A DNA stretch of 64,000 nt, from positions 269,609-333,608 of the forward strand of contig CAVXUP010000009.1 of NCBI GenBank assembly GCA_963765005.1. Direction: 5' to 3'. Of this stretch, positions 11,644 through 42,872 are shown piece after piece (position 1 is the first letter of the stretch; each line of letters opens with the position of its first letter). The notes under the pieces were generated by a model. That model worked only from the letters and a program-made list of their open reading frames with translations. It had not been told where the DNA came from and did not search any database. The position numbers and the translations under genes were made by a program. The stretch is from an uncultured Bacteroidales bacterium (GTDB lineage Bacteria > Bacteroidota > Bacteroidia > Bacteroidales > VadinHA17).

Positions 11644-12225
11644 ATGATAATGACTGACAAACAACTACTTATTGATCTTTCAAACCTTACAGAGGGTGAA
11701 CGCACTGAGATGAAAAAGCTTGGCCTGTTATCAGGTGACAATAAGCTTGCAGAATTTGTATACCCAGCTTTTCACAACGATCGTCCGCCAATAGAAAAAC
11801 ATGTTGTGCATGCCCCTCATGTTATAAACGAAGCATATAACTACCAGAAACCATCATCCTTTTCCAGAGCACTCAGGCTTGACTTCGGCGATTATAAAAT
11901 TCTTCTGATTTCGGGAACTGCCAGCGTCAACGAAGAGGGTAAAGCTGAGCATATAGGTGATTTCAAGGCTCAGTTATGGAGGACTTACCGTAATATTACC
12001 AATCTGCTGGCAGCGGAAGGGATGTCATGGCATGATATTGTCAGAACAACTAATTACCTGAGAGACATAGAGAGGGATTATGCTGAATTCAATAAAATAA
12101 GAACCACCTTCTACAGGTGGATGAATCTTGATCCTTTGCCGGCAAGTACAGGCATACAGGCAAGGCTTTGCTGGGAAACACTCCTTGTCGAGATCGAGGC
12201 TTATGCTGTCTGTAAAATCAAATAA
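11644..12225 (+). CDS. YjgF/RidA-fold (chorismate-mutase-like superfamily) protein with a roughly 60-aa N-terminal extension
   Basis: ILLISGTASVNEEG...DFKAQLWRTYRNITNLLAAEGMSWHDIVRTTNYL...PASTGIQARLCWETLLVEIEAYAV matches the RidA/YjgF C-terminal signature (P-A-x-T/S...L-V-E-I-E). Confidence 0.7.
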   Translation: MIMTDKQLLIDLSNLTEGERTEMKKLGLLSGDNKLAEFVYPAFHNDRPPIEKHVVHAPHVINEAYNYQKPSSFSRALRLDFGDYKILLISGTASVNEEGKAEHIGDFKAQLWRTYRNITNLLAAEGMSWHDIVRTTNYLRDIERDYAEFNKIRTTFYRWMNLDPLPASTGIQARLCWETLLVEIEAYAVCKIK

Positions 12226-15584: not shown

Positions 15585-15626
15585 TAATGAGGTCAGTTTA
15601 TGCATATATTTCATAATTTTGAGAGC

Positions 15627-18600: not shown

Positions 18601-20774
18601 ACCGCACAATAAGAATAAGGTCCAATATGGAGATTTATTGGGATCAGATATTTTTTTCTGACGCGATATCCACTGCAGAGTTAGTCTCAACTACTTTATA
18701 TCCGGTATCTGCAGACCTTCATTACAGGGGCTTTTCGGAAAGCTACAGAAAAGGGGGACGATATGGTCCCCACTGGTTTGACTATTCAAAAGTTGAAAAG
18801 GGTCAGAAATGGAGAGACCTTACCGGCAACTATACTCGTTACGGTGACGTTCTCCAATTACTTGAAGAGTCTGATAATATGTATATCATATCTAACGCCG
18901 GTGATGAAACTACTATCGAATTTGATCCGAAGCTCTTACCTGAACTGAAAAAAGGATGGAAGAGGGATTTCTTCATTCACTCAGTCGGCTGGGTAAAAGA
19001 CGGTGATATAAATACTGCTTCTGGAAATACAGTTGAGCCGCTGCCATGGCATGGTATGAAGAGTTACCCTCCGGCAGAAAATGATAAGTATCCAAATGAT
19101 CCTGAACTTAAGAAATACCACAAGGAGTACAATACCAGGGTTGTCACCCAGGAGGAGTTCATTAATGCCATTAAACCAAAAACCAATAAATCTGTCGTTT
19201 TTACAGATGTGACTAAGAAAGCAGGGATTGATTTTAACTACACAATAGGCGACAACTCCTACGTCAACATTCTTGAAAGCAGTGGTTCAGGTATAACTGT
19301 CTTTGACTATAACAACGATGGGCTCATGGATATCTACCTCATGAACGGAACATATCTTGAAGGTATTTCTGACCCTGACGGAAAAATTTATAAAGACACA
19401 CCGGACAGACTTTACAGGAACGATGGTAATGGACGGTTTTCTGAGGTATCAGCTTCTGCAGGCCTTGATGACCGCAACTGGAGCATGGCTGCAGGGGCAG
19501 TTGATTATGACAATGACGGCGACCAGGACCTGTTCCTGTTGAATTACGGACCCAATAGGTTCTTCAGGAACAATGGAAACGGAACCTTCAGCGATATAAC
19601 TGCAGCAACAGGTCTCGCAGGTCCCGGTAAATTAAACGGATTCACCAAATGGAGCATTGGCGTCTCTTTTCTCGATTACAACAGCGATGGCAGGCTCGAC
19701 GCCATGGTTGGCAACTTCCTGGCTTTTGATCCGGCGTATGTATCAACTGCTGGTCCGGGAATAATGCCACACCCTTCAGAGTATAAAGGACAAGCGTCTT
19801 TATTGTATGAACAACAGCCTGACGGAAGCTTTACTGATGTCACAAAGCGAATGGGGCTCTTTTATCCCGATTCAAAATGCATGGGGCTGACAATTTACGA
19901 TTATGATGAAGATGGAGACCTCGATATTTTCCAGGCAAACGATCACCAGCTCAATTATCTTTTCAGGAGAGATAAGGAATTTTTTACAGAGGTGGCTGTC
20001 GGGAGCGGTGTGGCTGCAAACAGCAAAGGAATCGGGACAGGATCAATGCATGGGACAATCGGAGATGTTGACGGTGATGGTCTTGTCGATATACTTGTCA
20101 CTGACCTCGAATATGGAGCTCTGTACAGAAACAAGGGTAACGGACTTTATGAGGATATAACAGAAAAAAGCGGGATTGCATCTCAAATAGCCGGAAAAGG
20201 AAGCTGGGGGTCAGCACTGTTTGATTATGACAACGATGGCGACCTTGATATGGTGGCTGCCAATGGGACTGCAGAGGAACTTATATTGCAGTATCCTGTA
20301 CTGCTTGAAAATGACGGCAAGGGAAATTTCAGGAATGCAGGGCCCGAAGCCGGCTCATATTTTTCAGAAAAACGGTCAGGACGAGGCCTTGCGGTACTTG
20401 ACTATGATAACGATGGCGACCTCGACCTTACTGTTTCTCATGTTGATAAAAAAGGAACTGCAGTCCTGCTCAGGAACGATGGTGGCAATAACAATCACTG
20501 GATCGGCATAACGCTTAAAGGCAGAAATGGAGTTGCTCCTGCTATCGGGGCAAAAGTGGAAGTATCATCAGGAGGGAAAAAACAGGTGCATATTAACCAG
20601 TGGTCAACAAGCTATCTTTCAAATAATGATCCAAGGATGCATATAGGACTCGGGGAAAGCGAGAAAATTGACCTCCTCGAGATAACATGGTCGGATGGCA
20701 TGAAAGAGTCTTACAGAGACATAAGAGGCAACCGGTATATTATTCTTACTCAAGGGAAAGGAATAACAGAGTAA
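15627..20774 (+). CDS. Giant (about 1715 aa) lipoprotein: TPR region, two FG-GAP/ASPIC (CRTAC1-like) modules, and an unrecognised central domain of about 440 aa
   Basis: ATG 15627 gives MKDLLKILVALTFILSLAGC (the ORF track starts at 15600). Many D-x-D/N-x-D-G FG-GAP units. Two ASPIC/UnbV-like segments (NHYITMKLVGLRAGSAKNNHFGIGAKVEMRAG; NHWIGITLKGRNGVAPAIGAKVEVSSGGKKQ...YLSNNDPRMHIGLG). Confidence 0.85.
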   Translation: MKDLLKILVALTFILSLAGCRNRADNGGSKSTDLISVKTLGLAYLEEFKHEEAEKEFLKFIKLAPEDKFGYANLGLVYLRLARYKEAEEQLFKAIKIAPEDPDIRLILATVYRMNNESDKAISVLSEALKSSPDHAKMLYDLSELYLASPNQESDIKREECLKRLAEKAPGNLVPLLSLTEIFIKKGLYDEAVAELEIIKKQFPEFPKEANEYYEKTLSLLRKGDKDNALISYTIFNNYLKVTNPYQAGIIELKGPGGALIGFPVITFAPQTSTRMAQNESLLDILVFTDATVSSGLSVIPSDSTGDKNGQSNSFTALNDYDGDGDTDIYSGSYDKSTSTYKHYLLNNEMGRFREISADAGINMTGVENGASFADFDNDGFPDLLILRSDGNKLYKNTGKGSFEDVTKSSRMPEKSTGKKALFFDPDHDGDLDLLETGSSKILVMRNNADGTFLENSGAMGLAGENGPAGDAAFGDFDEDGDIDLITAGEKGGITLYSNQRQGIFKNITETSGLSSVAGSTSISVGDYNNDGYLDLFVTPVKGGDYKLYRNLRNGSFEAETGTEDMFSALRSLNAFDAAFIDFNNDGFLDLAVAGEQLENTGRGLFLYCNDGKGNYSDVSRLLPEEIGSARQLNLFDYNDDGDIDLLLTKSDGGVCLLRNDGGNENHYITMKLVGLRAGSAKNNHFGIGAKVEMRAGELYQTLVVNDPNIHFGIGSRAYADIIRITWTNGVPQNIFLPGSGQRLIEAQTLKGSCPFLYAWNGEEFQFSKDIMWRSALGMPLGIMGGTTAYAFADASDDYIKIPGESLKEKNGKIPLQITSELWETIYTDKIELVAVDHPETVEVFVPEQFSPPPFPGLKITAIAGKKIPVSAFDGYGNDQLKTLSEKDDRYVAGFRPDKYQGVTEMNELIIDPGKSGRDGKLLMFMNGWIFPTDASINYAISQSSALSVVPPIIEVRDGKGNWVTVIDNLGFPMGKDKTVIADLTGKFLSDDRTIRIRSNMEIYWDQIFFSDAISTAELVSTTLYPVSADLHYRGFSESYRKGGRYGPHWFDYSKVEKGQKWRDLTGNYTRYGDVLQLLEESDNMYIISNAGDETTIEFDPKLLPELKKGWKRDFFIHSVGWVKDGDINTASGNTVEPLPWHGMKSYPPAENDKYPNDPELKKYHKEYNTRVVTQEEFINAIKPKTNKSVVFTDVTKKAGIDFNYTIGDNSYVNILESSGSGITVFDYNNDGLMDIYLMNGTYLEGISDPDGKIYKDTPDRLYRNDGNGRFSEVSASAGLDDRNWSMAAGAVDYDNDGDQDLFLLNYGPNRFFRNNGNGTFSDITAATGLAGPGKLNGFTKWSIGVSFLDYNSDGRLDAMVGNFLAFDPAYVSTAGPGIMPHPSEYKGQASLLYEQQPDGSFTDVTKRMGLFYPDSKCMGLTIYDYDEDGDLDIFQANDHQLNYLFRRDKEFFTEVAVGSGVAANSKGIGTGSMHGTIGDVDGDGLVDILVTDLEYGALYRNKGNGLYEDITEKSGIASQIAGKGSWGSALFDYDNDGDLDMVAANGTAEELILQYPVLLENDGKGNFRNAGPEAGSYFSEKRSGRGLAVLDYDNDGDLDLTVSHVDKKGTAVLLRNDGGNNNHWIGITLKGRNGVAPAIGAKVEVSSGGKKQVHINQWSTSYLSNNDPRMHIGLGESEKIDLLEITWSDGMKESYRDIRGNRYIILTQGKGITE

Positions 20775-26578: not shown

Positions 26579-26845
26579 ACAACATCAATAAAAGGATCTT
26601 CTTTTAAACATGTAAGGGCGCAATATTTTCGCCTACAACATTAATGAAAAGGATCTTCTTTTAAACATGTAAGGGCGCAAAATTTTGCGCCCCTACAACA
26701 TTAATGAAAGGATCTTATGTAAAACATGTAAGGGCGCAATATTTTGCGCCCCTACAACATTAATGAAAGGATCTTATGTAAAACATGTAGGGGCGCAAAA
26801 TTTTGCGCCCCTACAACAATATTTAAAAGGATCTTCCTATCAATA
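26579..26845. repeat. Tandem array (4 full copies plus 1 partial) of a 56-60 bp unit, each carrying a GC-rich palindrome
   Basis: Units start at 26579, 26635, 26695, 26754 and 26813 (ACAACATTAATGAAAGGATCTTATGTAAAACATGTAGGGGCGCAAAATTTTGCGCCCCT). A perfect 24-bp palindrome aggggcgcaaaattttgcgcccct lies at 26789-26812. The array sits between convergent genes. Confidence 0.95.
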
Positions 26846-28607
26846 TGCAGGGTCCTGTACAAGGACACCTTTCTGAAGGTCGATCTGATCCTGTGGCAAT
26901 GGCCAGAAATCATTCTTGGTCGGATTGAAGACAGCGCCAATCATGAATTTCCTGAACTGTGAATCCTTGGCAATATAAGCAGGAATAACCGTTCCCAGAA
27001 GGTTCCATCTCCTCAGGTCGAAGAAACGACGGTTTTCTGTAGCAAATTCAAGCCTCATCTCCTCACTGACAGCCTTTCGGGCTTCAGCCTGAGTAGCGAA
27101 TGCTGCTGCTCCCGCCGGGTAAGGTTCAACCTTATAGTTAGCTGCAGGCTTTGTGTAGTCAACAACAGGGCTATTAGCAAGGTTTGCATATGTTGTGCAG
27201 AGGCCCATTACAGGGGTGCTTGTTTTGGCACGGTTACGGATCTGATTCACAAGTGTCCTTGCAAGTTCAAGATCAGCAGGAGTTCCTGCTTCTACAGCAA
27301 CTTCTGCTCGCCACAGAATAATATGAGCAAGACGGTACATCCTGTAATTTTTACCGTTATCAAAGCCTGTTCCGCTGGCATTCAACGACTGCTCTTCCTT
27401 TTTGTGCATGTATTTCTTTGTCATATAAGGACCGCCGTTATTCTGTTCACGGATCCAGGAGTTTCCAACATGAATTCCCCAGCCCAGATAATCAACGCCG
27501 CGACGGGCAATTGTCCAGTCAACGCGTGGGTCCAGTTCTGCTGTTGTAGGAACGAAGTTATCAGCGCTTCCTTTACCCATATCATTGGCAAGTACAGCTC
27601 TGGCAGAAGGATCAAGTATTGGCAAACCGTTGGCATCTACCTGGTAAGCTTCAAAAAGATCCTGTGAGGGCTGAAAGAATCCCCAGCCGCCGCAACTTGC
27701 AGGACCGGCCTGGTGCATGCAGGGACCTGCAAGCATCATAGCCTGCTGGCTTGTACCTGTTGTTGCGCACTGCAGTTCGAAGATAGACTCTTTATTGTTT
27801 TCGTGAGTCATATCGAAATTCCAGTAGAAATCAACAAGTCCGAATGCTGTATTTGCCAGGATGTCATCAAGCAATGGCTTTGCAGAACTGAATTTATTCT
27901 GTGCCATAAAAACATCGGCCTTAACTGCTTCGGCAGCATACTTTGTAATACGACCCGCTTCGTTCTTGATTTTTGTAGTCGGGAGGTTGTCAATCGCAAA
28001 CTGAAGGTCAGCTTCAATCCCGGTCCATCCCCGATCAGTGTTAGGAACCTGCTCAGGCAGAGTAGTACCTAAGTTCTGTCACAGTTTTGATATAGGGGAT
28101 ATTCTCGAATACCTTGTTAGCCTCGAAGTGGAACCAGGCCCTGAGGAATTTTGCTTCAGCTTCGATCTGTTTTGCCCTTGTATCATCAATAGGCGCTGCA
28201 GTTTTCTGAGTTGCCCAAAGTGCTTCAAGAACAACGTTTGAACGGGCGACACCGTTATAGCTATCCCTCCATCTTTCGCGCATGTATGGATTGCTTGGCA
28301 ATGCTTCATATCTCTCGACTTCGTTGTAAGCGCTCTGGTCGCCTGCTGATGTACCTTTGTAAGCATCATCAGAAGCGCCGCTTGCATAGGTCCAGTCCGT
28401 TCCCATTGCTGCTCCAAACCTGCCGGTATCCTTTGTAGCCTGGTAAGTTGAAATCAGGAGAGCTTCAACACCGTCCTTTGTATTCATCTGTGAAGCTGAT
28501 GCTACCCCCGGAGGCTCCTTTGTAAGGAAGTCTTCACTGCAGGAATATGTCATCAGCAGACTTGTGATGAACAGGACAGTAAACAATAAATTGATTTTTT
28601 TCTTCAT
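26840..28607 (-). pseudogene. SusD/RagB-family lipoprotein with a single frameshift near nt 28070-28085
   Basis: ORF 28053..28607 has lipobox LLMTYSCSEDFL and SusD N-terminal helices (RAKQIEAEAKFLRAWFHFEANKVFENIPYI). The protein continues in another frame (my translation: LGTTLPEQVPNTDRGWTGIEADLQFAIDNLPTTKIKNEAGRITKYAAEAVKADVFMAQNKF), joining ORF 26840..27907 (...RRFFDLRRWN...). Confidence 0.8.
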
Positions 28608-28639
28608 AACTCTAATTTTAAATGTTTAAAACATATTTG

Positions 28640-31600
28640 TTATAAACCAAAGGTGATACCGAACATGAACTGCTTCGGCGTTGGCCAGGCACCCTGATCA
28701 ACTCCCATATTAATACCGGCACCTGCAATTTCAGGATCAAGACCGGAATAGTTTGTAAGAGTAAACAGGTTGGAGCCCTGGAAATAAATCTGAACAGTAC
28801 TGAATTTGTTATTCAGAAGCCTGTTAATATCATAACCTACCCTGAAATTCTTCATCCTTAGGAAGGAACCATCTTCGAGGAAGGCTGTTGATGGCTGCTG
28901 GTGAGGTGTATCGTTGGAGTAAATAACCGGCATTGTTGCCTTGGAATTGTCTCCATTGAGGTACGGGCTGCCCCATGATTCATAAAGCCTTCTGTTACTC
29001 TTGCCTGATTCGAACTGAGTATAGTCGATAAAACGGCTAACATAGTTTACGATTTCGTTTCCGACACTTGAATAGAGAGTTGCAGACAGGAAAATTCCCT
29101 TGTAGTCGACATTGAATGAAAGACCAGCTGTGAAATCAGGGTGAGGTGATCCAATGTAAGTACGGTCCGCTGCATCGACCCATCCGTTTCCATCAACATC
29201 CTTGTATTTGTAATGTCCAAGGTCGTTATATGTACCAGTGGCTCCGAAGGCCTTTGGCCAATTATCAACCTCATCCTGCGTCTGGAAAATCCCTTCGACC
29301 TGGTATCCGAAGAATTCAGGGAAAGAGTGACCACTTTGAGTCCTGGTATAGATCATCTCACGATAGGTCGAACCTGCATAGAAGTCACCCAGGTTGTCGG
29401 TAAGTTTCACAATCTCATTTTTATAATGAGAGAATACAAGGTCAACACCCCAGTTGAGATCACCGTTCAATGAACTCTTGGCATAACCAAGGGTAATATC
29501 AAAACCGGTATTTTTCATCTCACCGATATTTATCGAAGGCTGTGATGCTGTTCCATAGATAAGAGGCAGCCTGTTTAGGATAAAGCATATCACTTGTAAC
29601 ACGCTGCCACAGGTCAATGTTCATTGTAAGACTCTTGAACAAAGTAGCATCTATACCAAAGTTTGTTGTTGCAGTGGTTTCCCATTTTACATCAGCGTTG
29701 CCGAATGTGGTCTGGGCGAATCCGGTTGTACCTGCTGTGCTGTTTGAACCGCTGACCGGGTAAAATGCAGTATTGAAGTTAATTGCATATTGTGAGTAGC
29801 TGTTGTAGTTACCCATGCGGTCGTTTCCGACCACTCCGTAACCTGCACGGATCTTCAATTCATCCAGCCAGCTTTTTGTAGAGGCCATGAAGTTCTCCTC
29901 TGAAATCCTCCATCCAAGGGAGACTGCAGGGAATACACCATACTTCTGGTTACCGAAACGGGAAGAACCATCACGGCGAATTACAGCCTCGACCATGTAT
30001 TTATCGGCATATGTATAGTTTATACGGCCAAAGATAGAGAACAGGCTATATTCACTGATTCCGCCTCCTGAGTTGTTGATTGAACGAAGACCTGTATTCA
30101 GGTTCATATAAGTAAGGTCAAGAATAGGATATTCTGATCTGTTGGCACCAATACTCTCTCCATTGCTTTCAAAAGCCTCGGTACCTGCAATTGCCTTGAG
30201 ATTATGATCACCTGTGATCAGAGAATAATCAATTGTATTTGTCCAGGTCCAGTTTGTTCCCCAGCCTGCGCCCTTTCCAAAATAATCATAAGTTCCTCTT
30301 TCCGCAGCAGCTACTTCAACAAAGTTGACATCCTGTGAGTTATACTGGTACTGGTTTATACCGACGCGTGTCTGAACAGATAAGCCTTTCATAAGGTTGA
30401 GTTTCAGATAAGCGTTTCCGGTAAGGTTGATCTGTTTTGTAAAATCATACTGGTTCTTGTCAAGAAGGAATACAGCGTTCTGAGCATTTCCCATACCGGA
30501 TGACCTAGATCCTCCATATGTGGTTCCTGAAATATCATATAGGGGAACCATGGTAGGAAGACGGTAGGTCCAGGAAACTATTGAACTTTCAGAGTTATCG
30601 CCCTGGTGTCCGTAATCATTGGTATAGTTACCACCGATATTGGTACCCAAATCGATCCACTTTGCAGGGGAAGTGTTGATGTTTGCACGGAAACTGTACC
30701 TGTCGAAACCTGTGTATTTAAAAACACCTTCGTCCTTGGTGTAGCCAAGAAGGAATGCATATGTTGTATTGGCACTGCCGCCTGTTACATCAATTGTATA
30801 CTCTTTAAACTGAGCATCACGCTGGGCTTCTTCCATCCAGTTTGTCCCTGGGCTAGATTTGGCAATAAGATAGGTGTCGGTACCATCAATGGTAGCCAGT
30901 TTATTGTCATATCTGGCAGGATCTACGAGCGGAGATCCTTCTGCAGTTTTTGTTGGGAATATATAGTCAGGAATAACAGGCTCTGATCCGGTTCCAAACT
31001 GAACATGATTATAAGTAAGGACAGGAGCTGCACCTACTGGATTTCTTTGCCAGGCCCTTAAATTTTTATTATAAAGGTTCTCTGTTTCAAGCCACAACAT
31101 GTCTCCCCACTCCTGGGTATTTAAAAGGTCATACTGGTTAGAATTCCTTGTGATACCCTGCCTGACGTTAACGGTCATGTTTACTTTCTGGTTTTTCTTA
31201 CCCGATTTTGTTGTTACAAGAACAACCCCGTTGGCAGCCCTGGCACCATAAATTGACTGGGCAGCAGCATCTTTAAGGATTGTGATTGATTCAACATCAT
31301 TTGGCGAATAGTTACCGCCGGGAATACCATCAACAACGAACAGCGGGTTGGCATCGTTGATTGTTGTCATACCACGGATCCTCAGGGTTGAGCCTTCACC
31401 GGGGGTATGCTGGTTCAGAACCGATACCCCTGCCACTTTACCCTGGAGACGCTGAACCGGGTTGGAAGCAGCACTTTCGGCAAGAGCAGCAGAATTAACA
31501 GTTGAAACTGCACCGGTAAGAGATTTCCTTGTCTGGGTTGAATAACCTACAACAACGATCTCATCAAGTGCGGTTTGTGTTTCAACAAGGGTTACATTAA

Positions 31601-31955
31601 TTAAGGTCTGCGTACCTACCGGAACGTCGACTGTGGTGTAACCGATAAATGAGAAGGTCAGCACTGAGTTGCCGGAGGTGACAGAAATAGCATATGAGCC
31701 GTTACCGTCGGTAATCTTCCCATTTGTTGTACCTTTTTCGATAATATTTACCCCGACAAGTGCGTTGCCTTGATTGTCAACAACTTTACCGGAAATATTT
31801 ATCTGCTGAAAGTCATCTGAAGAGGCAACACCTGCCGCTGTTGCGGTGAGTTGTGCTGTCCCTATCAATAAAAACAGAGAAAGGAGCCTCATCATGGTTT
31901 TGTGCCTGGTGAAGCACATCACTAACAAAGCTGCCTGCTTTAATTTCTTAGTCAT
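28640..31955 (-). pseudogene. SusC-family TonB-dependent receptor with a single frameshift near nt 29568-29571
   Basis: ORF 29520..31955 has CarbopepD_reg-like and plug motifs (ISGKVVDNQGNALVGVNI, IVVVGYSTQTRKSLTGAV, LRIRGMTT, PLFVVDGIPG, VESITILKDAAAQSIYGARAANGVVLVTTKSG). The barrel continues in ORF 28640..29617 (LPLIYGTASQPSINIGEMKNTGFD...ITFGL, terminal aromatic-type end). The likely true start is MMRLLSLFLL, near 31895. Confidence 0.8.
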
Positions 31956-33053: not shown

Positions 33054-33154
33054 ATAATATAATGTATAACTTATGTAAATATAGGATAAAAGTTTGGAGT
33101 CCCTGGGTAAGCACTTATATAATTATCTTCAGAGTATGAGATGCGGATTGCTTC

Positions 33155-33266
33155 GTCACCGTCCGCCAGCCGGCGGACGGGTTCCTCGCAATGACGGTGA
33201 CTGTAAGTATCTGATTCCATTACGCCATTACGCCTTTACGCCATTACGCCTTTATGCCGTTGTGCC
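33155..33266. repeat. Nested GC hairpins followed by an octamer array (CCATTACG x6, degenerate)
   Basis: ccgtccgcc-agcc-ggcggacgg (33159-33180). gtcaccgtc (33155-63) is complementary to gacggtgac (33193-201). Then ccattacgccattacgcctttacgccattacgcctttatgccgttgtgcc (33217-33266). Confidence 0.9.
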
Positions 33267-33357
33267 TGAATTCTTCTGTGAAAAAATTAACACCAATCCA
33301 TTGCAGTTTCAAATGATTTCATATTTTTGCATAAAATGCCATAGACAAGTATCATTT

Positions 33358-33760
33358 ATGAATTTCAGTAAGACAGCTTCTTATTCACTAAACATTCTGA
33401 GCTATATGGCAATAAATGAAAATGTGCCTATGTCTGCTGCAGTTCTCCATGAAAAGCTTTCAATCCCCTACCCTTATCTCAGGCAGATACTAACTACTCT
33501 CGCAAAGAATGATTTTATCGGGAGCACAAGGGGCAGAGGCGGCGGTTTCAGATTCAGCAGGGACATAAGACACCATTTCCCTGGCCGATATCATTGATGC
33601 AACAGACGGACTTGAAAGCCTGAATAAATGTTTACTGGGATTCAGTGCTGTCCCGTTCAACAATGAGTGTTCAATGCACTCTGTCTGGGAATCAACACGA
33701 CAGAATATTGTTAAAGTACTGAAAGAGACATCACTGGCTGACATAGCAAAGAAGAGATAA
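33358..33760 (+). pseudogene. Rrf2/BadM-family transcriptional regulator with a frameshift near nt 33571-33575
   Basis: MNFSKTASYSLNILSYMAINENVPMSAAVLHEKLSIPYPYLRQILTTLAKNDFIGSTRGRGGGFRFSRDI is a typical Rrf2 wHTH. The expected continuation (ISLADIIDATDGLESLNKCLLGFSAVPFNNECSMHSVWESTRQNIVKVLKETSLADIAKKR) is open in the +1 frame to a stop at 33758-33760. Confidence 0.75.
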
Positions 33761-33821
33761 TTTTTTTATTTTTAATTGAGATAAACTTATATCATTTAAC
33801 ATTAACAAAAAAGGAGGTCCT

Positions 33822-34391
33822 ATGGTTGACTCAAAAATGGTCCTCACAGGACAAACACTGGCTTATACGCTTTACTGTATTGCCATGATATTGCTTGTCG
33901 CCTGGTTCAGTTTAAAGGTGACAACAGAAGGAAAGGGGAAATTAAAGGGTATTAAACCTGCATGGTTTTACACTCTTGTCGGCTTCCTGACAGTACTCGG
34001 TTTTTCACTCCACGTTATCACCTACAATACAATCCCGTGGGCTGAAATGGATCTGAAGCGGGCAGCTTATACCCCGGATAAGACTTTTGAAATAACTGTT
34101 AAGGATCATAAGTTCAACCTTCCCTCAGAAAAGCTTGTGATAAATGTGAACGACAAGGTTCTGTTTGACGTCACGTCAGAAGATCTGACCTACGGGTTCG
34201 GGTTATTCAGGAGCGATAACAGCATGATGTTCCAGATGCAGGTCGTACCAGGCCACAGGAATGATATTCTCTGGCTCTTCGATCGCGAAGGGGTCTACTC
34301 AATACGATCGACCGAGTACTCCGGACCAAAAGGAGTTGCTATGATCTTGCGTGATGTAGTACAGGTGGTTCCTGCAGGAGGAATAAAATAA
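33822..34391 (+). CDS. Haem-copper oxidase subunit II-like protein (2 TM plus cupredoxin fold) with a degenerate CuA site
   Basis: Two N-terminal TM helices. The beta-rich domain ends in IRSTEYSGPKGVAM, which aligns to the CuA motif C-x-E-x-C-G-x-x-H-x-x-M with both Cys changed to Ser and His changed to Gly. A strong AAGGAGG lies 4 nt upstream of the ATG. Confidence 0.65.
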   Translation: MVDSKMVLTGQTLAYTLYCIAMILLVAWFSLKVTTEGKGKLKGIKPAWFYTLVGFLTVLGFSLHVITYNTIPWAEMDLKRAAYTPDKTFEITVKDHKFNLPSEKLVINVNDKVLFDVTSEDLTYGFGLFRSDNSMMFQMQVVPGHRNDILWLFDREGVYSIRSTEYSGPKGVAMILRDVVQVVPAGGIK

Positions 34392-34418
34392 TCTCAAAAA
34401 CATTTAATAATCAGACTT

Positions 34419-36038
34419 ATGAGTTTTATAAAGACATTCATGAACGGTGAAGAGGGTCATTTCAAATCAGCTACTCTCACTCCAATGCAGAAACTTACAC
34501 TCCGGTTTGTTGTAGTAGGGCTTATCTATTTCGGATTCGTAGTGATAGAAGGCATGATTATGAGGCTATACCAGGTCACGCCTCTCTCTTACATAACTGA
34601 ACCTCAGTATTTTGCTATACTTACGGCTCATCCCCTTGTCGGAATCTTCGGATCAACATATTCAATTGTATGCGGCGCATTCCTGTTTCTGGTTCCTTTT
34701 CTGATGAAGAAACCACTGTGGAGCATCAAACTAGGCAACTGGACCTTCGTTCTTATCGCTGCAGGGACCTTTATTTTCTGGTTTGCAGGTTTTGTAAGTC
34801 ATTACTCACCGCTCTATACCCTCTATTGGCCCCTTCCAGCTGACTTCTCACAATTCAGTGTCTGGGGAGGTACCTTCTTTATAGTTGGTATTGCCATAGT
34901 CATGGTTGGAACTGCTTTTTTCATAATAAATATCTTTAAGACAATAACCTATACTCCTGAAGGATGGGACAAACAACCTGCAGGTGCATTGCTTAAATCA
35001 GCTCTTGGCATTACCGGATTTACAAATATCTTTTCTAAAGAGAACAAGGAACATCTTGTGCCTCTTCCTGTTGCCGCAGTGGCCAGGGGAAGTATCGACA
35101 TGGCATTGAATACAGCCACGATCCTATTTACTGGTGTACTGATACTTGTTTATATGGTTGGTTCTATTCTCGGATTCGACCTTAAGGAGACAGCAGTTGA
35201 TGCACTTCTGTACAAAAACTGGTTCTGGTGGGGACTTGACCTGATTGCCGATGGACTTGTACTGATCTTTGTGGCCGGGACCTGGTACCTTCTGGCAATG
35301 ATGATCACCGGAAAGCCACTCTTCATGCAGAATATTGCCAGAGCTGCCCTTCTTGTCGAACTTATAGTATCATGGACGGTCTGGTCACATCACCTTCTTT
35401 CTGATCAGGCGCAGCCAGGGGTACTTAAGGTCCTTTCAGGTGAACTTGTTACAGCATTTGAACTGATAACACAGGGGCTGGCCTTCTTCATTACTCTTAT
35501 TACCCTTTGGAGCGCCAGGCCTCTAAAAATGACAAATCCGCTGAAATTCCTGCTCGGCGGACTTCTTGGTTTTGCACTTGCGGTACCTGCAGGAATAATG
35601 CAGGCTGATGTTGGCCTGAACAGGATCCTTCACAATACCCAATGGGTTGTAGGACCGCATGTTCATGTTGCAGTTCTGGTTGGGCTTACAATGACACTCT
35701 ATTCCGCAATCTACCTTCTTTTCCCAATCTTGACGAATGGAGCTAAAGTCCATAGTCAGAAACTTGTAAATCTGCACTTCTGGTGCCATCTGACAGGCGG
35801 AATAGGCATGGGTGCGTTCATGGGAATGGCCGGACTAAACGGAATGCTGAGGCGGTCTATATACTATGAAGGCGAATTCAATCTCCTGATGATTCTGGCT
35901 GCGATCAGCGGAGCCTTAATCCTGATCGGTTTCCTTGCATTCTTCTATAATATAGTAATGAGTGTAGGCCTGAATGGTGTGATTGGCATTTTCACTCCAG
36001 CGAAACTTAAAACAAAAGACCTGGTTCCCGCTGAGTAA
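34419..36038 (+). CDS. Haem-copper oxidoreductase superfamily subunit I-like protein (12 or more TM) with an atypical active site (Asp replaces a CuB His; no cross-link Tyr)
   Basis: Conserved His: helix II ILTAHPLVG (H71), helix VII WSHHLL (H324/H325), helix X GPHVHVAV (H414/H416). The helix VI motif FWW-x-G-H-P-x-V-Y is replaced by FWWGLDLIAD (Asp codon at nt 35238-35240). Confidence 0.8.
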   Translation: MSFIKTFMNGEEGHFKSATLTPMQKLTLRFVVVGLIYFGFVVIEGMIMRLYQVTPLSYITEPQYFAILTAHPLVGIFGSTYSIVCGAFLFLVPFLMKKPLWSIKLGNWTFVLIAAGTFIFWFAGFVSHYSPLYTLYWPLPADFSQFSVWGGTFFIVGIAIVMVGTAFFIINIFKTITYTPEGWDKQPAGALLKSALGITGFTNIFSKENKEHLVPLPVAAVARGSIDMALNTATILFTGVLILVYMVGSILGFDLKETAVDALLYKNWFWWGLDLIADGLVLIFVAGTWYLLAMMITGKPLFMQNIARAALLVELIVSWTVWSHHLLSDQAQPGVLKVLSGELVTAFELITQGLAFFITLITLWSARPLKMTNPLKFLLGGLLGFALAVPAGIMQADVGLNRILHNTQWVVGPHVHVAVLVGLTMTLYSAIYLLFPILTNGAKVHSQKLVNLHFWCHLTGGIGMGAFMGMAGLNGMLRRSIYYEGEFNLLMILAAISGALILIGFLAFFYNIVMSVGLNGVIGIFTPAKLKTKDLVPAE

Positions 36039-36085
36039 TAAAACATATTTCTTACTTTTGAAAGCACTTACTGATTTCAAAAGTT

Positions 36086-36595
36086 ATGAAACATAAATAT
36101 ATGAATCCATACCTGGCAGGTACTATGCTGGGTATGGTTCTTTTACTGGCGATGTTCCTGTCAGGACGTGGCCTGGGTGCCAGCGGAGGACTAAAATATT
36201 GTGTGGTTTCGATAGTAGGAGCCGTTGACAGGCCTCACGCTGACAAATCAATTTACTACAGCAAATACTTTGAAGACGGGAAGAAACCATTAAAGAACTG
36301 GCTCACTCTGGAAATACTCGGAGTTGTTGCCGGAGGTTTTCTATCCGGAGCACTATCAAAAAGACTGAAGTTCCGGATCGAGAAATCGCCGGACATTTCA
36401 AATTCCAGACGATTGGTCTTCGCTTTTCTGGGGGGAGTCTTCTTCGTTTATGGGGCCCAGCTTGCAAGAGGCTGTACCAGCGGCGCCGCCCTTTCAGGAA
36501 TGGCAGTACTTTCCGTTGCGGGATTTGTCACAATGATGGCAATATTCGGTTCGGCTTATATTTTTGCGTGGTTCTTTCGTAAAAACTGGATTTGA
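36086..36595 (+). CDS. YeeE/YedE-family sulfur-compound transporter half (PF04143-like)
   Basis: 4 TM. GRGLGASGG and ARGCTSGAALSGMA motifs (conserved Cys in the G-C-x-x-G loop). Confidence 0.8.
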   Translation: MKHKYMNPYLAGTMLGMVLLLAMFLSGRGLGASGGLKYCVVSIVGAVDRPHADKSIYYSKYFEDGKKPLKNWLTLEILGVVAGGFLSGALSKRLKFRIEKSPDISNSRRLVFAFLGGVFFVYGAQLARGCTSGAALSGMAVLSVAGFVTMMAIFGSAYIFAWFFRKNWI

Positions 36596-36596
36596 A

Positions 36597-36697
36597 GAAG
36601 GCGGTAAATGCGTAAAGGCGGTAAATGCTGTAAAGGCGGTAAAAGGAGCCGCGGTGTTAATTGCCTTATAAAGCCCTTAAAGCCTTTAAAGCTTTTT
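36597..36697. repeat. Degenerate tandem repeats (GGCGGTAAA-type arm, then CCTTTAAAG-type arm)
   Basis: gaaggcggtaaatgcgtaaaggcggtaaatgctgtaaaggcggtaaaagg ... ccttataaagcccttaaagcctttaaagc. Confidence 0.9.
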
Positions 36698-36747
36698 AAA
36701 TCATCTATGGCTGTTGAATTTATAAATGATTAAACTCTTATAACAAC

Positions 36748-37350
36748 ATGGGACCAATTTCATCACTGATAAACATGCCTGAGTGGCTCGATCTGCTGAT
36801 TGCATTATTCATAGGCATCGGTTTCGGTTTTGCCCTTGAGCAGGCAGGATTCTCCTCGAGCCGGAAGCTTGCAGGAATGTTCTATGGTTATGATACGACT
36901 GTGATTAAGGTATTCTTCACAGCAGCTATAGTAGCCCTTATAGGATCGCAGATACTCAGCTTCCTGGGTCTTCTTAACCTTAACCAGGTGTTTGTTAATG
37001 AATTCTATGTTACTGCTTCAATTGTCGGAGGAGTGATAATGGGAGCTGGTTTTATAATGGGTGGTTTCTGTCCGGGAACAGGGCTGAGCGCTTTGTCGAT
37101 AGGCAAAATTGATGCAATGGTTTTCTTCGGCGGAGGTCTTACAGGCGCATTCCTTTTTGCAGAAACCTATCCATATATCGAAAAAATAGCAAACAGTTCC
37201 TATAAAGGACCTGTTAAGATCGACGAAGCACTCGGGTTGTCAACCGGACTGTTCATTCTTCTTCTTATTGTTGCGGCAGTTATAATGTTCTGGATTGCAG
37301 AGCTTGCTGAGAAACGGTTCGCACGGCCTGACATTACAAATGAAATCTAA
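36748..37350 (+). CDS. YeeE/YedE-family sulfur-compound transporter, second half
   Basis: 5-6 TM. GFALEQAGFSS and GGFCPGTGLSALS motifs. Confidence 0.8.
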   Translation: MGPISSLINMPEWLDLLIALFIGIGFGFALEQAGFSSSRKLAGMFYGYDTTVIKVFFTAAIVALIGSQILSFLGLLNLNQVFVNEFYVTASIVGGVIMGAGFIMGGFCPGTGLSALSIGKIDAMVFFGGGLTGAFLFAETYPYIEKIANSSYKGPVKIDEALGLSTGLFILLLIVAAVIMFWIAELAEKRFARPDITNEI

Positions 37351-37972
37351 TATCCTCACTATGAATCCCAGGACTGCAATATCGGCAATTCTACTGAGTT
37401 TCGGACTTATACTTGCCCTGCTCCCACTTACAGCCAACCGCTCTTTTAGCGGAAAACCTCAGACAGTACTTGAAAAATCAGGAGCTGAAGACAGATATCT
37501 TACTGCCGATCAGGTGGCCCGGTTTATTATCGCTGAAGACACTACAATTCAGATAATCGACCTGAGATCACCTGAAGAGTATATGGCGATGAGCCTTCCG
37601 GGGTCATTGAATCTTCCATACGATCAGATGCTGACGAAGGACCCTGCTTATATATTCGACAAAAAAGGGATCAAAACGATATTGTATTCTAATGGTGACC
37701 TGAAAGCCAGCTATGCTCTTGCGATTGCAGAAGGATTGAATTATGATAATGTCTATATCATGAAAGGCGGTCTCAATGAGTGGTTTAAAACAATAATAAA
37801 CAGCAGCTTCACCGGAGAGAAGATCTCTGCAAGGGAGAATGCGCTATTCGAGACAAGAACCAGGGCCAGAAGGCTTTTCAATGAACTTAACAGTCTGCCT
37901 GACAGTCTTAAGATAAAATATCTTGCTGCTAAACAGGGTGAAGCTAAGAAGCTGGATGGGGGATGTGAATAA
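37340..37972 (+). CDS. Membrane-anchored rhodanese-like domain protein with the active-site Cys replaced by Ser
   Basis: ATG 37340 (MKSNIL..., TM anchor AISAILLSFGLILALLPL) overlaps the upstream gene by 11 nt. Rhodanese fold IQIIDLRSPEEYMAMSLPGSLNLP...ILYSNGDLKASYALAIAEGLNYDNVYIMKGGLNEW. Confidence 0.75.
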   Translation: MKSNILTMNPRTAISAILLSFGLILALLPLTANRSFSGKPQTVLEKSGAEDRYLTADQVARFIIAEDTTIQIIDLRSPEEYMAMSLPGSLNLPYDQMLTKDPAYIFDKKGIKTILYSNGDLKASYALAIAEGLNYDNVYIMKGGLNEWFKTIINSSFTGEKISARENALFETRTRARRLFNELNSLPDSLKIKYLAAKQGEAKKLDGGCE

Positions 37973-37977
37973 GAAGA

Positions 37978-38070
37978 GAATTTGAAAATTTGAAAATTTG
38001 AAAATTTGAAAATGGCTTAAAAATTTTTAAGCTTTGAGTCGTGAGTCGTGAGTCGATTGCCATGAGTCAA
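37978..38070. repeat. Octamer array (TTTGAAAA x4.5), an 18-bp AT palindrome, and a heptamer array (GAGTCGT x3)
   Basis: gaatttgaaaatttgaaaatttgaaaatttgaaaat (37978-38013). gcttaaaaatttttaagc (38015-38032). tttgagtcgtgagtcgtgagtcg...atgagtcaaaa. Confidence 0.95.
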
Positions 38071-38083
38071 AATTTATGCAGTT

Positions 38084-38551
38084 ATGGAAATAGTTAAGAA
38101 ATATAAATGGGTCATTATAGTAGTACTGCCGGTGCTGATACTCGTTGTTATCAGGTCGACAGGCATTTACCGCTTCAGGAGTGATGCCAATAAATGGGCA
38201 GAACCTTCGGTAAACAGTTCAAATATCATCAGCAGTGAACAATTAGCAGAGATAAAGGGAGATGCGATTATAATTAACCTTGACGGAGAAAAAAGAGATT
38301 TCAGATCAGAGGGTTTTAAATCAATAACAATTTCTGAAGACTCAATCCTCATCAAAGCAAACCTGAGAATAATCAAAGGTCATTCTGGTCCGGCGCTGCT
38401 CTATTCAGAAGATCTCAGCAAGCAGGCCCGTGTATGGATGGTACTGAGCCAGCTGGGCAATAAAAACATCTTTATCCTAACTGATAAACAGGATGATGAG
38501 GTCATGAAATACAAATTCCGGCCCGACACCATTGTCAGACCGGAATTGTAA
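38084..38551 (+). CDS. Membrane-anchored rhodanese-like protein, probably catalytically inactive (Ser at the Cys position)
   Basis: N-terminal TM WVIIVVLPVLILVVI. AIIINLDGEK...GPALLYSEDLSKQARVWMVLSQLGNKNIFILTD resembles a rhodanese core. Confidence 0.55.
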   Translation: MEIVKKYKWVIIVVLPVLILVVIRSTGIYRFRSDANKWAEPSVNSSNIISSEQLAEIKGDAIIINLDGEKRDFRSEGFKSITISEDSILIKANLRIIKGHSGPALLYSEDLSKQARVWMVLSQLGNKNIFILTDKQDDEVMKYKFRPDTIVRPEL

Positions 38552-38602
38552 AAACGCCATGCATGGCGTTTTCGTCGTACAAACGCCATGCATGGCGTTT
38601 TT
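38551..38602. terminator. Two tandem copies of a palindromic hairpin between convergent genes (bidirectional terminator candidates)
   Basis: aaaacgccatgcatggcgtttt (38551-38572) and aaacgccatgcatggcgttttt (38581-38602). Each has an 8-9 bp GC-containing stem flanked by A and T runs. Confidence 0.7.
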
Positions 38603-38607
38603 ACAAA

Positions 38608-39675
38608 TCATTTTACCACCGTAAAATCATTGACGTCAGCATAGGTGAACGGCAGCCACGAAAGAGCTTCCCTTTGTTTGATCATCTTATCGTGCATGAA
38701 GCTGTTATTACCGTATCTGAGGGTTCTGGCATCATAACCAAAGAGTCTCAGGTAGGCAGTGGCAAATCCAGAGTTATGGCCTGTTCCGCAGTACACAACA
38801 ACTATCTTATCAGACGGTATCGATGCCATCTCCTCTGTAAATCCAAGCGTAGATTCCGGTTTATATCTGATTGCCCCGGGAATATGTCCATCTTCATATT
38901 TGTCCTTTCTCTCGAGGTTGATTATGAAATATTTCCCCGGATCAGCAAACACTTCTTCAGCAGTTACAAGTATATTAGCAGTACCTTCTTCAAAGAGTTT
39001 CTTAAACCTGGCAGATCCTATCTCCTCTCCTGTTGTCAGTCCGGTTTTAAGGTCAGGCATTGAAACAGCAGCAGGTCTTTCGTTCACTTTGGTTTCGAGC
39101 TTTGCTTCAAACTGCCCCGTGACTCCTTTCATCCAGCCTTCATCGGCATATTTCTTATTCCAGGAGCTCATTCCCCAACGCATGGCAAATACATTACCGT
39201 AACCCATCAATCGCAACAAGCTTGTGGTATAGCTTGATACCTGTCCATCCTCACAAACCATGATAATCTTTTCGAACTCAAAGGGTTTTATACCAGATTC
39301 AAAATAGCCGGGAAGTTCTTCAAACTTCCGGTTAACTGCTCCTTTAATATGACCTGACTTAAACCTATCAGCAGATCTGAGGTCAATCACGAGAATATTG
39401 GTTCCAAGGCTCTGGTTAACAATTGACGGCTTAATCAGTGAAGGGAAAACAAGGCTGTTTACATAATCACCATTTTCAACCAGATCCTTTAGCAAAAGAG
39501 CTGTTTCATTACCAATGACAACAGGTTTTTTTGAAACAGGAGCAGGCGTAGCTGCCTGCTCCATATTCTTCTCTCCACTGTTTCCTGCACATCCTCCCGA
39601 TATTAAAACCGCAATGACGAAAACAGCAGAAATGCTATGACGGAATTTTTTCATTAATTGAAATGTTTTTTCCAT
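38608..39675 (-). CDS. Lipoprotein with tandem rhodanese domains (sulfurtransferase)
   Basis: Lipobox LISGGCAGN. Domain 1: ILVIDLRSADRFKSGHIKGAVN...IIMVCEDGQVSS. Domain 2: FIINLERKDKYEDGHIPGAIRY...VVVYCGTGHNSGFATAYL (canonical C-x5-S/R-like active loop). Confidence 0.85.
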   Translation of the reverse strand: MEKTFQLMKKFRHSISAVFVIAVLISGGCAGNSGEKNMEQAATPAPVSKKPVVIGNETALLLKDLVENGDYVNSLVFPSLIKPSIVNQSLGTNILVIDLRSADRFKSGHIKGAVNRKFEELPGYFESGIKPFEFEKIIMVCEDGQVSSYTTSLLRLMGYGNVFAMRWGMSSWNKKYADEGWMKGVTGQFEAKLETKVNERPAAVSMPDLKTGLTTGEEIGSARFKKLFEEGTANILVTAEEVFADPGKYFIINLERKDKYEDGHIPGAIRYKPESTLGFTEEMASIPSDKIVVVYCGTGHNSGFATAYLRLFGYDARTLRYGNNSFMHDKMIKQREALSWLPFTYADVNDFTVVK

Positions 39676-40739
39676 TATTCTTTTACAGCCACCCTGTCCT
39701 TATCAAAACGGAGGGTTTCAGTGCGCTGACCTGATTCGTCATACTTGTATTCAGTTATGGCAACACCATTTTCAGGATTATTCACAACATTCCTGTCCTT
39801 ATCCATGCTTATTGCTTCAATAAGCGCTCCGTGCTCATCATATTTATAAGCTGTGACAGGTACCATTTTACCACCTACATACTCATCATCCTGATCATAA
39901 TAAACAGTCTCTAAGGGATATCCGTTAGCATCGAATTTACTCACTCGTTTCGACCATCCCCAATAAAGATTTGACATCTGTCCAATTACATTGAAAACAG
40001 CAAAATTTTCAACATCGCCTTGTTCATTGGGATTAAATGTGAAATATGAAACCCCTATATCGCCGCAGTTTTCAGCTGTGCAGTTATAGAGAGTGTCGCC
40101 CATATAGTTTGCCATTCTGGTCACAAAACCTTTATCGTTATAGGTAAACCTTAATTCGTAGAATGGGCAGAACTGATTCATTACTACTTCTGAGTCAGCA
40201 AGGTTATATCTTAATTCCCTGATCATTCCGTCGGGAAGAACACTCCATTTCCATGAGTGAATTTTATTCCTGTTCTCCACCATTGAACTGTCTTTTCCAA
40301 GGAACATAAGCCCGGTCCTGAGTCCATTGTCATCGAGTGTATATTCAGCAAGATAGACTCCTCCAGATTCAATCCGTTCATTCTTGTTATTGAAATATCT
40401 CTTGAGTTGTTTGTTTCCTGTATACTCATAAGTGATCTTTGCGGCGCCCTGCATCGATGAATAACCAAGCAGAACATCATTGCGGACAAATTCGACTGAT
40501 ACTACCCTTCCTGCATCATCATAAGTAAATTTATAACTGTTTACTGTTTTAGCCTCATCCGCAGTCAGAGGGTGAGTTCCCTTTTCAGTGTCGTACGGAG
40601 TTTCGCTGAATTGCAGGCTTCTGAAATACGCAACTTCCTGTTTCTGGTCTTTCTGGCTCTTATTGCCGGTACATGATACAACTGCCAGTCCAATAACAAG
40701 CGAAAGGACAGCCATTACTGTGATTTTACTCAATTTCAT
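39675..40739 (-). CDS. Lipoprotein with degenerate YD/RHS-like repeats, function unknown
   Basis: Lipobox LAVVSCTGN. Recurrent units: KFTYDDAGRVVSVEF, ITYEYTGNKQL, AEYTLDDNGLRTGLMF, RFTYNDKGFVTRMANY, YKYDEHGALIEAISMD, EYKYDESGQRTETLRFD. Confidence 0.45.
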   Translation of the reverse strand: MKLSKITVMAVLSLVIGLAVVSCTGNKSQKDQKQEVAYFRSLQFSETPYDTEKGTHPLTADEAKTVNSYKFTYDDAGRVVSVEFVRNDVLLGYSSMQGAAKITYEYTGNKQLKRYFNNKNERIESGGVYLAEYTLDDNGLRTGLMFLGKDSSMVENRNKIHSWKWSVLPDGMIRELRYNLADSEVVMNQFCPFYELRFTYNDKGFVTRMANYMGDTLYNCTAENCGDIGVSYFTFNPNEQGDVENFAVFNVIGQMSNLYWGWSKRVSKFDANGYPLETVYYDQDDEYVGGKMVPVTAYKYDEHGALIEAISMDKDRNVVNNPENGVAITEYKYDESGQRTETLRFDKDRVAVKE

Positions 40740-40850: not shown

Positions 40851-41024
40851 GTGGCGCAACGGCGCAACGGCTCAGAGGCGCAATGGCTAATGGCCAAATT
40901 GTTCCGCTAAGCGAAGTTGCAAACTTCGCCGAGCATCATTAATTGCATAGCTGCGCCGTTGTGCCGTTATGCCGCTACGCCGCTTTGCCGTTGTGCCGTT
41001 GTGCCATTGCGCCGTTGCGCCATT
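40851..41024. repeat. Inverted arms of octamer tandem repeats (GGCGCAAC-type vs GTTGCGCC/GTTGTGCC-type) around a central hairpin
   Basis: Left arm: gtggcgcaacggcgcaacggctcagaggcgcaatggctaatggcc. Centre: gcgaagtt-gca-aacttcgc. Right arm: tgcgccgttgtgccgttatgccgctacgccgctttgccgttgtgccgttgtgccattgcgccgttgcgccatt. Confidence 0.95.
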
Positions 41025-42766: not shown

Positions 42767-42872
42767 TTGTCTTGCGGTCGTGCGGTCGTGTTGTATTACA
42801 ATCATGAAGTCGGCTGCAAGACCTCAGGACTGCAGGACCGCACGACCGCAGGACCGCAGGACCGCAAGACAA
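42767..42872. repeat. Inverted heptamer-repeat arms (TGCGGTC / GACCGCA) that exactly fill the gap between convergent genes
   Basis: ttgtcttgcggtcgtgcggtcgtg (42767-42790) and gcaagacctcaggactgcaggaccgcacgaccgcaggaccgcaggaccgcaagacaa (42816-42872). The outermost 13 nt, ttgtcttgcggtc / gaccgcaagacaa, are perfectly complementary. Confidence 0.95.

Follow-up and report, generated by a model that had tools for sequence, protein, structure and literature searches.

Gene content of the locus

We analyzed a stretch of 64,000 nucleotides (the window) from an uncultured Bacteroidales bacterium of the GTDB lineage VadinHA17 (GenBank assembly GCA_963765005.1, contig CAVXUP010000009.1, forward-strand positions 269,609 to 333,608), in which genes for an atypical heme-copper oxidoreductase (HCO) stand directly 5' of genes for sulfur-compound uptake and transfer. 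An earlier note, made from the sequence of this region alone, had read these genes as one sulfur-trafficking neighborhood under an Rrf2 regulator. Comparison with related loci shows two separable units, a cassette with the genes for Rrf2 and for both HCO subunits (II-like and I) and a six-gene sulfur module.

All genes were located by an open reading frame listing and family searches (Table 1). The order is Rrf2 pseudogene, HCO subunit II-like, HCO subunit I, two YeeE/YedE half-genes and two membrane-anchored, Cys-less rhodanese-like genes. Convergent with these, on the minus strand 3' of the second membrane rhodanese-like gene, lie a tandem-rhodanese lipoprotein gene and then a YD-repeat lipoprotein gene. 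Every gene listed in the earlier note was found where it had been placed, and its assignments of the HCO subunits, the YeeE/YedE halves (complementary parts of the Sulf_transp profile), the second membrane rhodanese-like protein (a profile-profile match by hhalign) and the convergent lipoprotein were all confirmed. Three details required amendment. The note had omitted the YD/RHS-repeat lipoprotein, a conserved member of the module. The catalytic Cys of rhodaneses is missing from both membrane rhodanese-like proteins and is retained by the tandem-rhodanese lipoprotein alone. The 11-nucleotide (nt) overlap that it described between YeeE half B and the membrane rhodanese holds if ATG 37340 is chosen as the start, but ATG 37361, the position at which 12 of 12 aligned orthologues begin, leaves a 10-nt gap.

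Table 1. Genes and predicted control elements of the locus, in window coordinates (aa, amino acids)
Feature	Position	Strand	Evidence and remarks
CRP/FNR-like site, TGTGAAAAAATTAACA	33277..33292	+	exact match; 5' of the cassette promoter; function predicted
Putative Rrf2 operator, degenerate copy of the palindrome AATGATAC-N6-GTATCATT	33335..33356	+	abuts the Rrf2 ATG; sole copy in the window
Rrf2-family regulator pseudogene	33358..33760	+	Pfam Rrf2 5e-15 (N-terminal piece); two tblastn frames
HCO subunit II-like membrane cupredoxin, 189 aa	33822..34391	+	COX2 match just under the Pfam cut-off
HCO subunit I, gNOR-like, 539 aa	34419..36038	+	COX1 E = 1.5e-55
HCO-YeeE spacer, 47 nt	36039..36085	+	keeps only the -7-type box of the YeeE promoter, TTACTTTTG, at 36052-36060
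YeeE/YedE half A, PmpA-like, C-terminal-half type, 169 aa	36086..36595	+	Sulf_transp 7.5e-22, profile 174-309
YeeE/YedE half B, PmpB-like, N-terminal-half type, 200 aa	36748..37350	+	Sulf_transp 4.2e-16, profile 10-158
Membrane-anchored rhodanese-like protein, no catalytic Cys	37340..37972	+	Rhodanese 1.4e-13; likely start 37361
Second membrane-anchored degenerate rhodanese-like protein, 155 aa, no Cys	38084..38551	+	hhalign to the membrane rhodanese
Tandem-rhodanese lipoprotein	38608..39675	-	Rhodanese 1.5e-26, two stretches; lipobox LISGGC
YD/RHS-repeat lipoprotein	39675..40739	-	YD_repeat 4.9e-11; 1-nt overlap with the rhodanese lipoprotein gene

Cassette and module occur together and apart

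We scanned one genome per species (GTDB) for the HCO, which at least 552 genomes carry, and analyzed the best 80 loci. Sampling in the reverse direction consisted of a metagenome scan with YeeE half A (80 close relatives, 63 informative loci) and of long contigs retrieved via the membrane rhodanese gene (8 loci). Loci retrieved through the HCO constitute an ascertainment-biased sample. The HCO adjoins the sulfur module at 15 of the 80 species loci, all with a subunit I at least 83% identical to that of the window, and on about 10 metagenome contigs. Three arrangements were found: module downstream of the cassette at the truA locus, the arrangement of the window; module downstream in a peptidase-M28/asparagine-synthase context; and module divergent, upstream of Rrf2, with a TerC gene. 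The earlier note had proposed comparing synteny among genomes with the same HCO, allowing that the adjacency might occur in this genome only; it recurs among related genomes at a frequency far above chance.

The two units are not conserved together. The module is missing from 65 of the 80 HCO loci, and about 85% of the sampled close modules lack the HCO. At 53 of the 63 informative metagenome loci truA lies directly 5' of YeeE with no HCO, and at the other 10 the cassette lies between the two; the rhodanese-gene sample contained seven loci with the module only and one with the cassette as well. Genes shared widely across the 80 HCO loci were limited to subunit I (79), subunit II (71) and Rrf2 (51). 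Flanks of the 65 module-free HCO loci comprised 176 different Pfam families, with no sulfur family among the 25 most frequent. The recurrent neighbors of the cassette are instead nitric oxide (NO) stress genes, namely DUF438-hemerythrin-PAS_10, DUF1858/DUF2249, cupin and RIC/ScdA_N-hemerythrin. In three loci (L009, L027 and L039) the region 3' of the cassette adds a further COX1-family gene fragment and a further Rrf2, along with an ScdA_N-hemerythrin of the RIC type and a PepSY_TM protein, and together these make up a larger NO-stress island.

Closely related loci differ by the presence of either unit. The truA locus occurs with the module only (the commonest state), with cassette and module (the window and about 20 loci) and with the cassette only (L006, L020, L021 and L025). 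In L006, where the sulfur module is absent, a 56-aa remnant of a DUF5698/DUF2179 gene directly follows subunit I (11704-11871 of that locus), which indicates a deletion that removed the module. The peptidase-M28 context likewise includes two loci with the module only (L169 and L170) and one with both units (L171). Two loci, L103 and L106, have modules that are 94% identical, yet a 3.2-kb cassette in one is replaced by 324 nt in the other. Without the HCO, the module was found behind at least 8 other flanking genes. Neighbor-joining trees place cassette-bearing loci scattered among module-only loci and module-less HCO loci nested among module-bearing ones. We considered cassette plus module as the ancestral state in the module tree and rejected this as unsafe, because the basal loci had been retrieved via the HCO; the rhodanese-gene sampling returned module-only loci in the same basal context, peptidase-M28.

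The cassette carries its own control signals

Whatever the genomic context, Rrf2 is preceded by a Bacteroidetes-type promoter and by the palindrome AATGATAC-N6-GTATCATT, which abuts the start codon. With up to 2 mismatches allowed, the palindrome was matched 29 times in the 2.06 Mb of loci: 22 times before Rrf2, six times before subunit II and once elsewhere. None of these 29 matches lies before YeeE. Farther 5', a TGTGA-N6-T(A/C)ACA element occupies the equivalent spot upstream of Rrf2 in many cassettes from unrelated genomic contexts. In the relatives, each cassette would normally be kept repressed by the Rrf2 that it encodes, a three-Cys protein of the Fe-S type. The target of this Rrf2 would be the palindrome, which overlaps the promoter region of the cassette, with a candidate CRP/FNR-like site beyond it. 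A sigma-70 promoter and terminator scan of the window gave counts equal to those in shuffled sequence and was uninformative for this stretch of Bacteroidota DNA.

The module has a promoter of its own. Its full form, GAACTTtATT...CTGTTTGAC...TAnnTTTG, is present 5' of YeeE in module-only loci and in most cassette-plus-module loci, where it lies downstream of subunit I. The spacer between the HCO and YeeE spans 72-781 nt in other cassette-plus-module loci and is reduced to 47-48 nt only in the window and its closest relative, L088, in both of which the -7 box is all that is left of the promoter. The GAACTT(T/A)ATT element sits about 10 nt 5' of the -33 box and about 60-90 nt 5' of YeeE half A in loci L089-L166; it is a candidate regulator site for the sulfur module and is lost in the window. 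We also considered whether the promoter upstream of Rrf2 might be a YeeE promoter captured by insertion of the cassette. This idea was rejected: the sequence upstream of Rrf2 moves with the cassette in unrelated contexts, and the conserved architecture of the YeeE promoter is different.

In the window, the Rrf2 reading frame is broken by a 1-nt insertion near 33571, as the earlier note had recognized. In addition, Val replaces the middle Cys (Cys2, a cluster ligand) of the CX6CX5C motif. Of 55 compared Rrf2 sequences, 54 keep this Cys and the window copy alone lacks it. Two defects that are independent of each other speak for genuine decay and against a sequencing error. Rrf2 is wholly missing from four cassette-plus-module loci (L008, L018, L028 and L034) that are not mutually closest in the cassette tree, which, together with the window pseudogene, suggests that this lineage has lost the repressor more than once. 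Loss affects 5 of about 15 cassette-plus-module loci versus 2 of about 22 others, a difference that is suggestive but comes from too few cases.

After repair of the frame, the window Rrf2 scored 104.9 bits against the Rrf2 superfamily model. Repaired and intact proteins passed this superfamily model alone and stayed below every equivalog cut-off, those of NsrR and IscR included; scores against the NsrR equivalog model were 36.8-49.9 bits for a cut-off of 182. The regulator resembles NsrR-type repressors in several ways: orthologues of the window gene combine an Rrf2 winged helix with three Cys (CX6CX5C), a candidate AT-rich palindromic operator covers its own and its target promoters, and its target genes and neighbors are NO-stress genes. 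It differs from them in passing no NsrR equivalog cut-off and, in the window, in being a pseudogene without one ligand Cys. The operator sequence was derived in this analysis and not from the literature.

An HCO with gNOR traits

Subunit I keeps the HH pair of helix VII and the GPHVH of helix X. Its heme ligands H71, H414 and H416 are invariant in the family, and GPHVH is present in 78 of 79 members. Helix VI reads WFWWGLDLIADG, where oxidases have GHP.VY: an Asp takes the place of the CuB His and the cross-link Tyr is absent, in a motif shared by 77 of the 79 members. The segment WWGLDLIADG aligned to GHPVVY of B-family relatives and to YGHNAV of cbb3 oxidases, and its Asp meets the CuB His only after a one-residue shift of the alignment, as in the GLH variant P0229. 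Subunit II contains IRSTEYSGPKG..M, a motif that 67 of 71 family members conserve and in which Ser replaces each of the two CuA Cys. With STEYSGPKG..M in place of C.E.CG..H..M it retains no CuA ligands, and the implied electron donor is a quinol.

These features agree with the description of gNOR, whose genes are named norGH (NorGH; Sievert 2008; Murali et al. 2024, PMC11214002): one active-site His is exchanged for Asp, the cupredoxin lacks CuA and the donor is probably a quinol. The window enzyme shares with gNOR a B-family-related subunit I with the Asp substitution and without the cross-link Tyr, and a cupredoxin subunit II without CuA ligands. The FIND preprint describes a His-to-Glu heme-ligand change in gNOR, the defining status of which is uncertain; this change was not found in the family alignment, in which subunit I retains all heme His ligands. 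Matched to the published trait descriptions, the window HCO is gNOR-like, and it is probably a quinol-dependent NO reductase for NO detoxification.

The HCO clade is compact and mostly Bacteroidales, and the subunit I sequences of the 80 retrieved loci share 76-89% identity. In a set of 1.84 billion representative proteins, full-length relatives of subunit I above 30% identity fell at only two levels, 73% and 47%. Subunit I sequences 77-81% identical to that of the window were also present in metagenome-assembled genomes labelled Acidobacteriota, Gemmatimonadota, Ignavibacteria, Chlorobiaceae, Aminicenantes and Spirochaetes (loci labelled other than Bacteroidales: L046, L052, L055, L068, L079, L080, L082, L085 and L087), indicating either horizontal transfer of the cassette or mis-binned contigs.

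A six-gene sulfur module

The two YeeE halves each have one Cys motif, ARGCTSG in half A, which is 80-95% identical in relatives, and GGFCPGTG in half B, which is intact relative to L004. Two half-size Sulf_transp proteins corresponding to the C- and N-terminal halves of YeeE, with one conserved Cys per half, recall PmpA/PmpB and the TsuA-TsuB (YeeE-YeeD) thiosulfate uptake system (PMC11582611, PMC11073785). Unlike PmpA and PmpB, the window halves are longer (169 and 200 aa versus about 130 aa). Unlike TsuA-TsuB, the window module has no TusA/YeeD-like partner, and no TusA-like gene was present in the module of any examined locus. The partners are instead two Cys-less membrane rhodanese-like proteins, the tandem-rhodanese lipoprotein and the YD-repeat lipoprotein.

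The first membrane rhodanese ends in KKLDGGC(E/N)-COOH (37949-37972). KKLDGGC is invariant in 12 of 12 aligned sequences and followed by E in 11 and N in one (L038), even though overall identity is just 48-63%. This tail is a possible persulfide carrier, and we know of no described equivalent. The second, 155-aa protein had no match in Pfam or NCBIfam and was related to the first by hhalign (probability 94.5%, E = 7.9e-8); its profile found nothing significant among solved-structure sequences, the weak matches to YnjE having E about 0.2. In the active-site loops of these two proteins, YSNGD and YSEDL, there is no Cys, and the 11-12 orthologues lack it as well. The tandem-rhodanese lipoprotein is the sole rhodanese of the module that retains catalytic Cys, one in each domain (VCEDGQ and YCGTGH), and the YD-repeat lipoprotein adjoins it in both GTDB and metagenome loci. 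Like the periplasmic rhodaneses PspE and YnjE, it is an exported rhodanese with catalytic Cys; unlike them, it carries a lipid anchor and two domains and is in every case accompanied by the YD-repeat lipoprotein.

In combination, the PmpAB-like channel formed by the YeeE/YedE halves, the pair of Cys-less rhodanese-like anchors facing the periplasm and the two lipoproteins would most likely take thiosulfate or sulfane sulfur outside the cell and hand it inward. Sulfur would pass from the periplasmic tandem rhodanese to the Cys-less anchors, one of them with the invariant C-terminal GGC, and on to the channel. We infer both this relay and the topology of the proteins from domain content and signal sequences.

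Two separable units and the alternatives

We favor, with a probability of about 0.6, the reading that two self-contained accessory modules are inherited side by side and that neither needs the other. The adjacency is genuine and recurs non-randomly within a single clade, and it is dispensable for either unit. What was shown directly is which genes and motifs are present, how they are distributed and that the units are separable. The stand-alone nature of the three-gene cassette follows from its shared genes, variable flanks, NO-stress neighbors and cassette-confined operator. The cassette, probably a gNOR/NorGH-type unit for NO detoxification, is a presence/absence polymorphism immediately 5' of YeeE within one Bacteroidales clade. 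Either unit is frequently lost, and both have probably also moved together as a block. The reading of the HCO as embedded in a single sulfur system under Rrf2 is not supported: the operator is confined to the cassette, YeeE has its own promoter and the Rrf2 of the window is dead. Given the decay of Rrf2, the HCO genes of the window are probably derepressed. With a dead repressor and a spacer of 47 nt, constitutive expression is plausible, as is transcription that continues into the sulfur genes, and co-transcription of HCO and YeeE is plausible in this lineage only.

Several points weigh against the view of two independent units. In the super-clade, roughly every second HCO cassette adjoins the module, in three arrangements with different flanks, and the cassette occupies the identical position 5' of YeeE in two different flank contexts. 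The spacer between HCO and YeeE is shrunken in several loci (47, 48, 72, 101 and 119 nt), and the divergent arrangement places Rrf2 between the two units. Non-random adjacency could reflect selection for linkage and not only ancestry or block transfer, and the module tree cannot settle the ancestral state because of the ascertainment bias in HCO-retrieved loci. In addition, NO reductase activity of any gNOR has never been shown biochemically (PMC11214002).

Functional coupling is the strongest alternative, and we consider it doubtful. Under coupling, the gNOR-like enzyme and the periplasmic rhodanese/YeeE relay would cooperate in sulfidic, NO-producing sediments, and selection for linkage would be driving them toward a single operon. 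The pair might handle products of NO and sulfide (thionitrite, polysulfide) or keep NO reduction going in sulfide. Such cooperation is consistent with adjacency at 15 of 80 species loci in three differently flanked arrangements and again in L171, with a cassette that is always on the 5' side of YeeE, and with the short spacers in the window, L088, L008, L028 and L038. However, it sits poorly with the excess of modules lacking an HCO and of HCO loci lacking the module and any recurrent sulfur family, with the many losses of either unit, with separate promoters and an Rrf2 operator that is not at YeeE, and with an opposite-strand gene that separates the two units in L036 and adjoins HCO1 in L035.

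Habitat also bears on coupling. The earlier note was aware of no described link between an atypical HCO and sulfur import and transfer, yet a link at the level of environment has been published: the gNOR preprint places gNORs predominantly in sulfidic environments. A functional HCO-sulfur connection fits this remark, is not required by the sequence evidence and is unproven. Its more specific form, in which a gNOR-type NO reductase and a split-YeeE relay are selectively kept together in one clade of sulfidic or peat sediments and are fusing into one operon for NO-sulfide chemistry, strikes us as improbable.

A substrate other than NO for the HCO, namely a sulfur compound supplied by the YeeE/rhodanese system, is highly unlikely. 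The earlier note had raised such a sulfur-linked substrate, for which the adjacency itself and the unusual Asp-containing active site are the only arguments. Against it, the enzyme is mostly found without the module (65 of 80 loci), the partners conserved beside it comprise an Rrf2 of the Fe-S type and proteins of NO stress such as RIC, hemerythrin and DUF1858, and its active site matches the gNOR proposal (PMC11214002). Finally, chance adjacency in this genome or an assembly artefact, at which the broken genes nearby (Rrf2, SusC and SusD) could hint, is refuted by the matching order in many independent assemblies and by the corresponding 48-nt junction in L088, and has a negligible probability.

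Read as two separable units, the data mostly show modular accessory genes. In this genome the units are nearly fused and the repressor is dead, and every combination of the units occurs in close relatives. As by-products, the analysis defines an Rrf2-NorGH-like cassette that stands alone and has a candidate operator, describes a sulfur module of six conserved genes and provides evidence that each is independent of the other. gNOR is a predicted NO reductase that has been proposed as an adaptation to sulfide, and the recurrent juxtaposition of an HCO and sulfur uptake offers a concrete place to test that idea.

Other features of the window

Upstream of the cassette, a SusC/SusD pair on the minus strand (26840-31955) has both genes split. 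SusC consists of overlapping pieces of 811 aa (29520-31955) and 325 aa (28640-29617), and SusD of pieces of 184 aa (28053-28607) and 355 aa (26840-27907). With Rrf2 this makes three broken genes within 8 kb, which reflects either accumulation of pseudogenes or assembly indel errors.

Short tandem arrays with 7-9-bp units occur in most intergenic regions of the window, for example CCATTACG five times and GCAGGACC seven times. They are located at 33217-33258, 36598-36696, 37979-38013, 40853-41021, 42816-42870 and other sites, and similar arrays are present in the corresponding spacers of relatives. The spacer on the truA side also contains a GC-rich palindromic element (GATTGCTTCG...CGCAATGAC, 33140-33205), of a type likewise found in the truA/YeeE spacers of module-only relatives.

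Farther away, positions 6966-8384 encode a protein whose middle domain is of the hydrazine-synthase-alpha type. After it comes a beta-propeller protein (8387-10414) that weakly matches di-heme peroxidase (CCP_MauG). Their surroundings encode very large FG-GAP/ASPIC proteins (5265-6950 and 15600-20774) and two periplasmic binding proteins.

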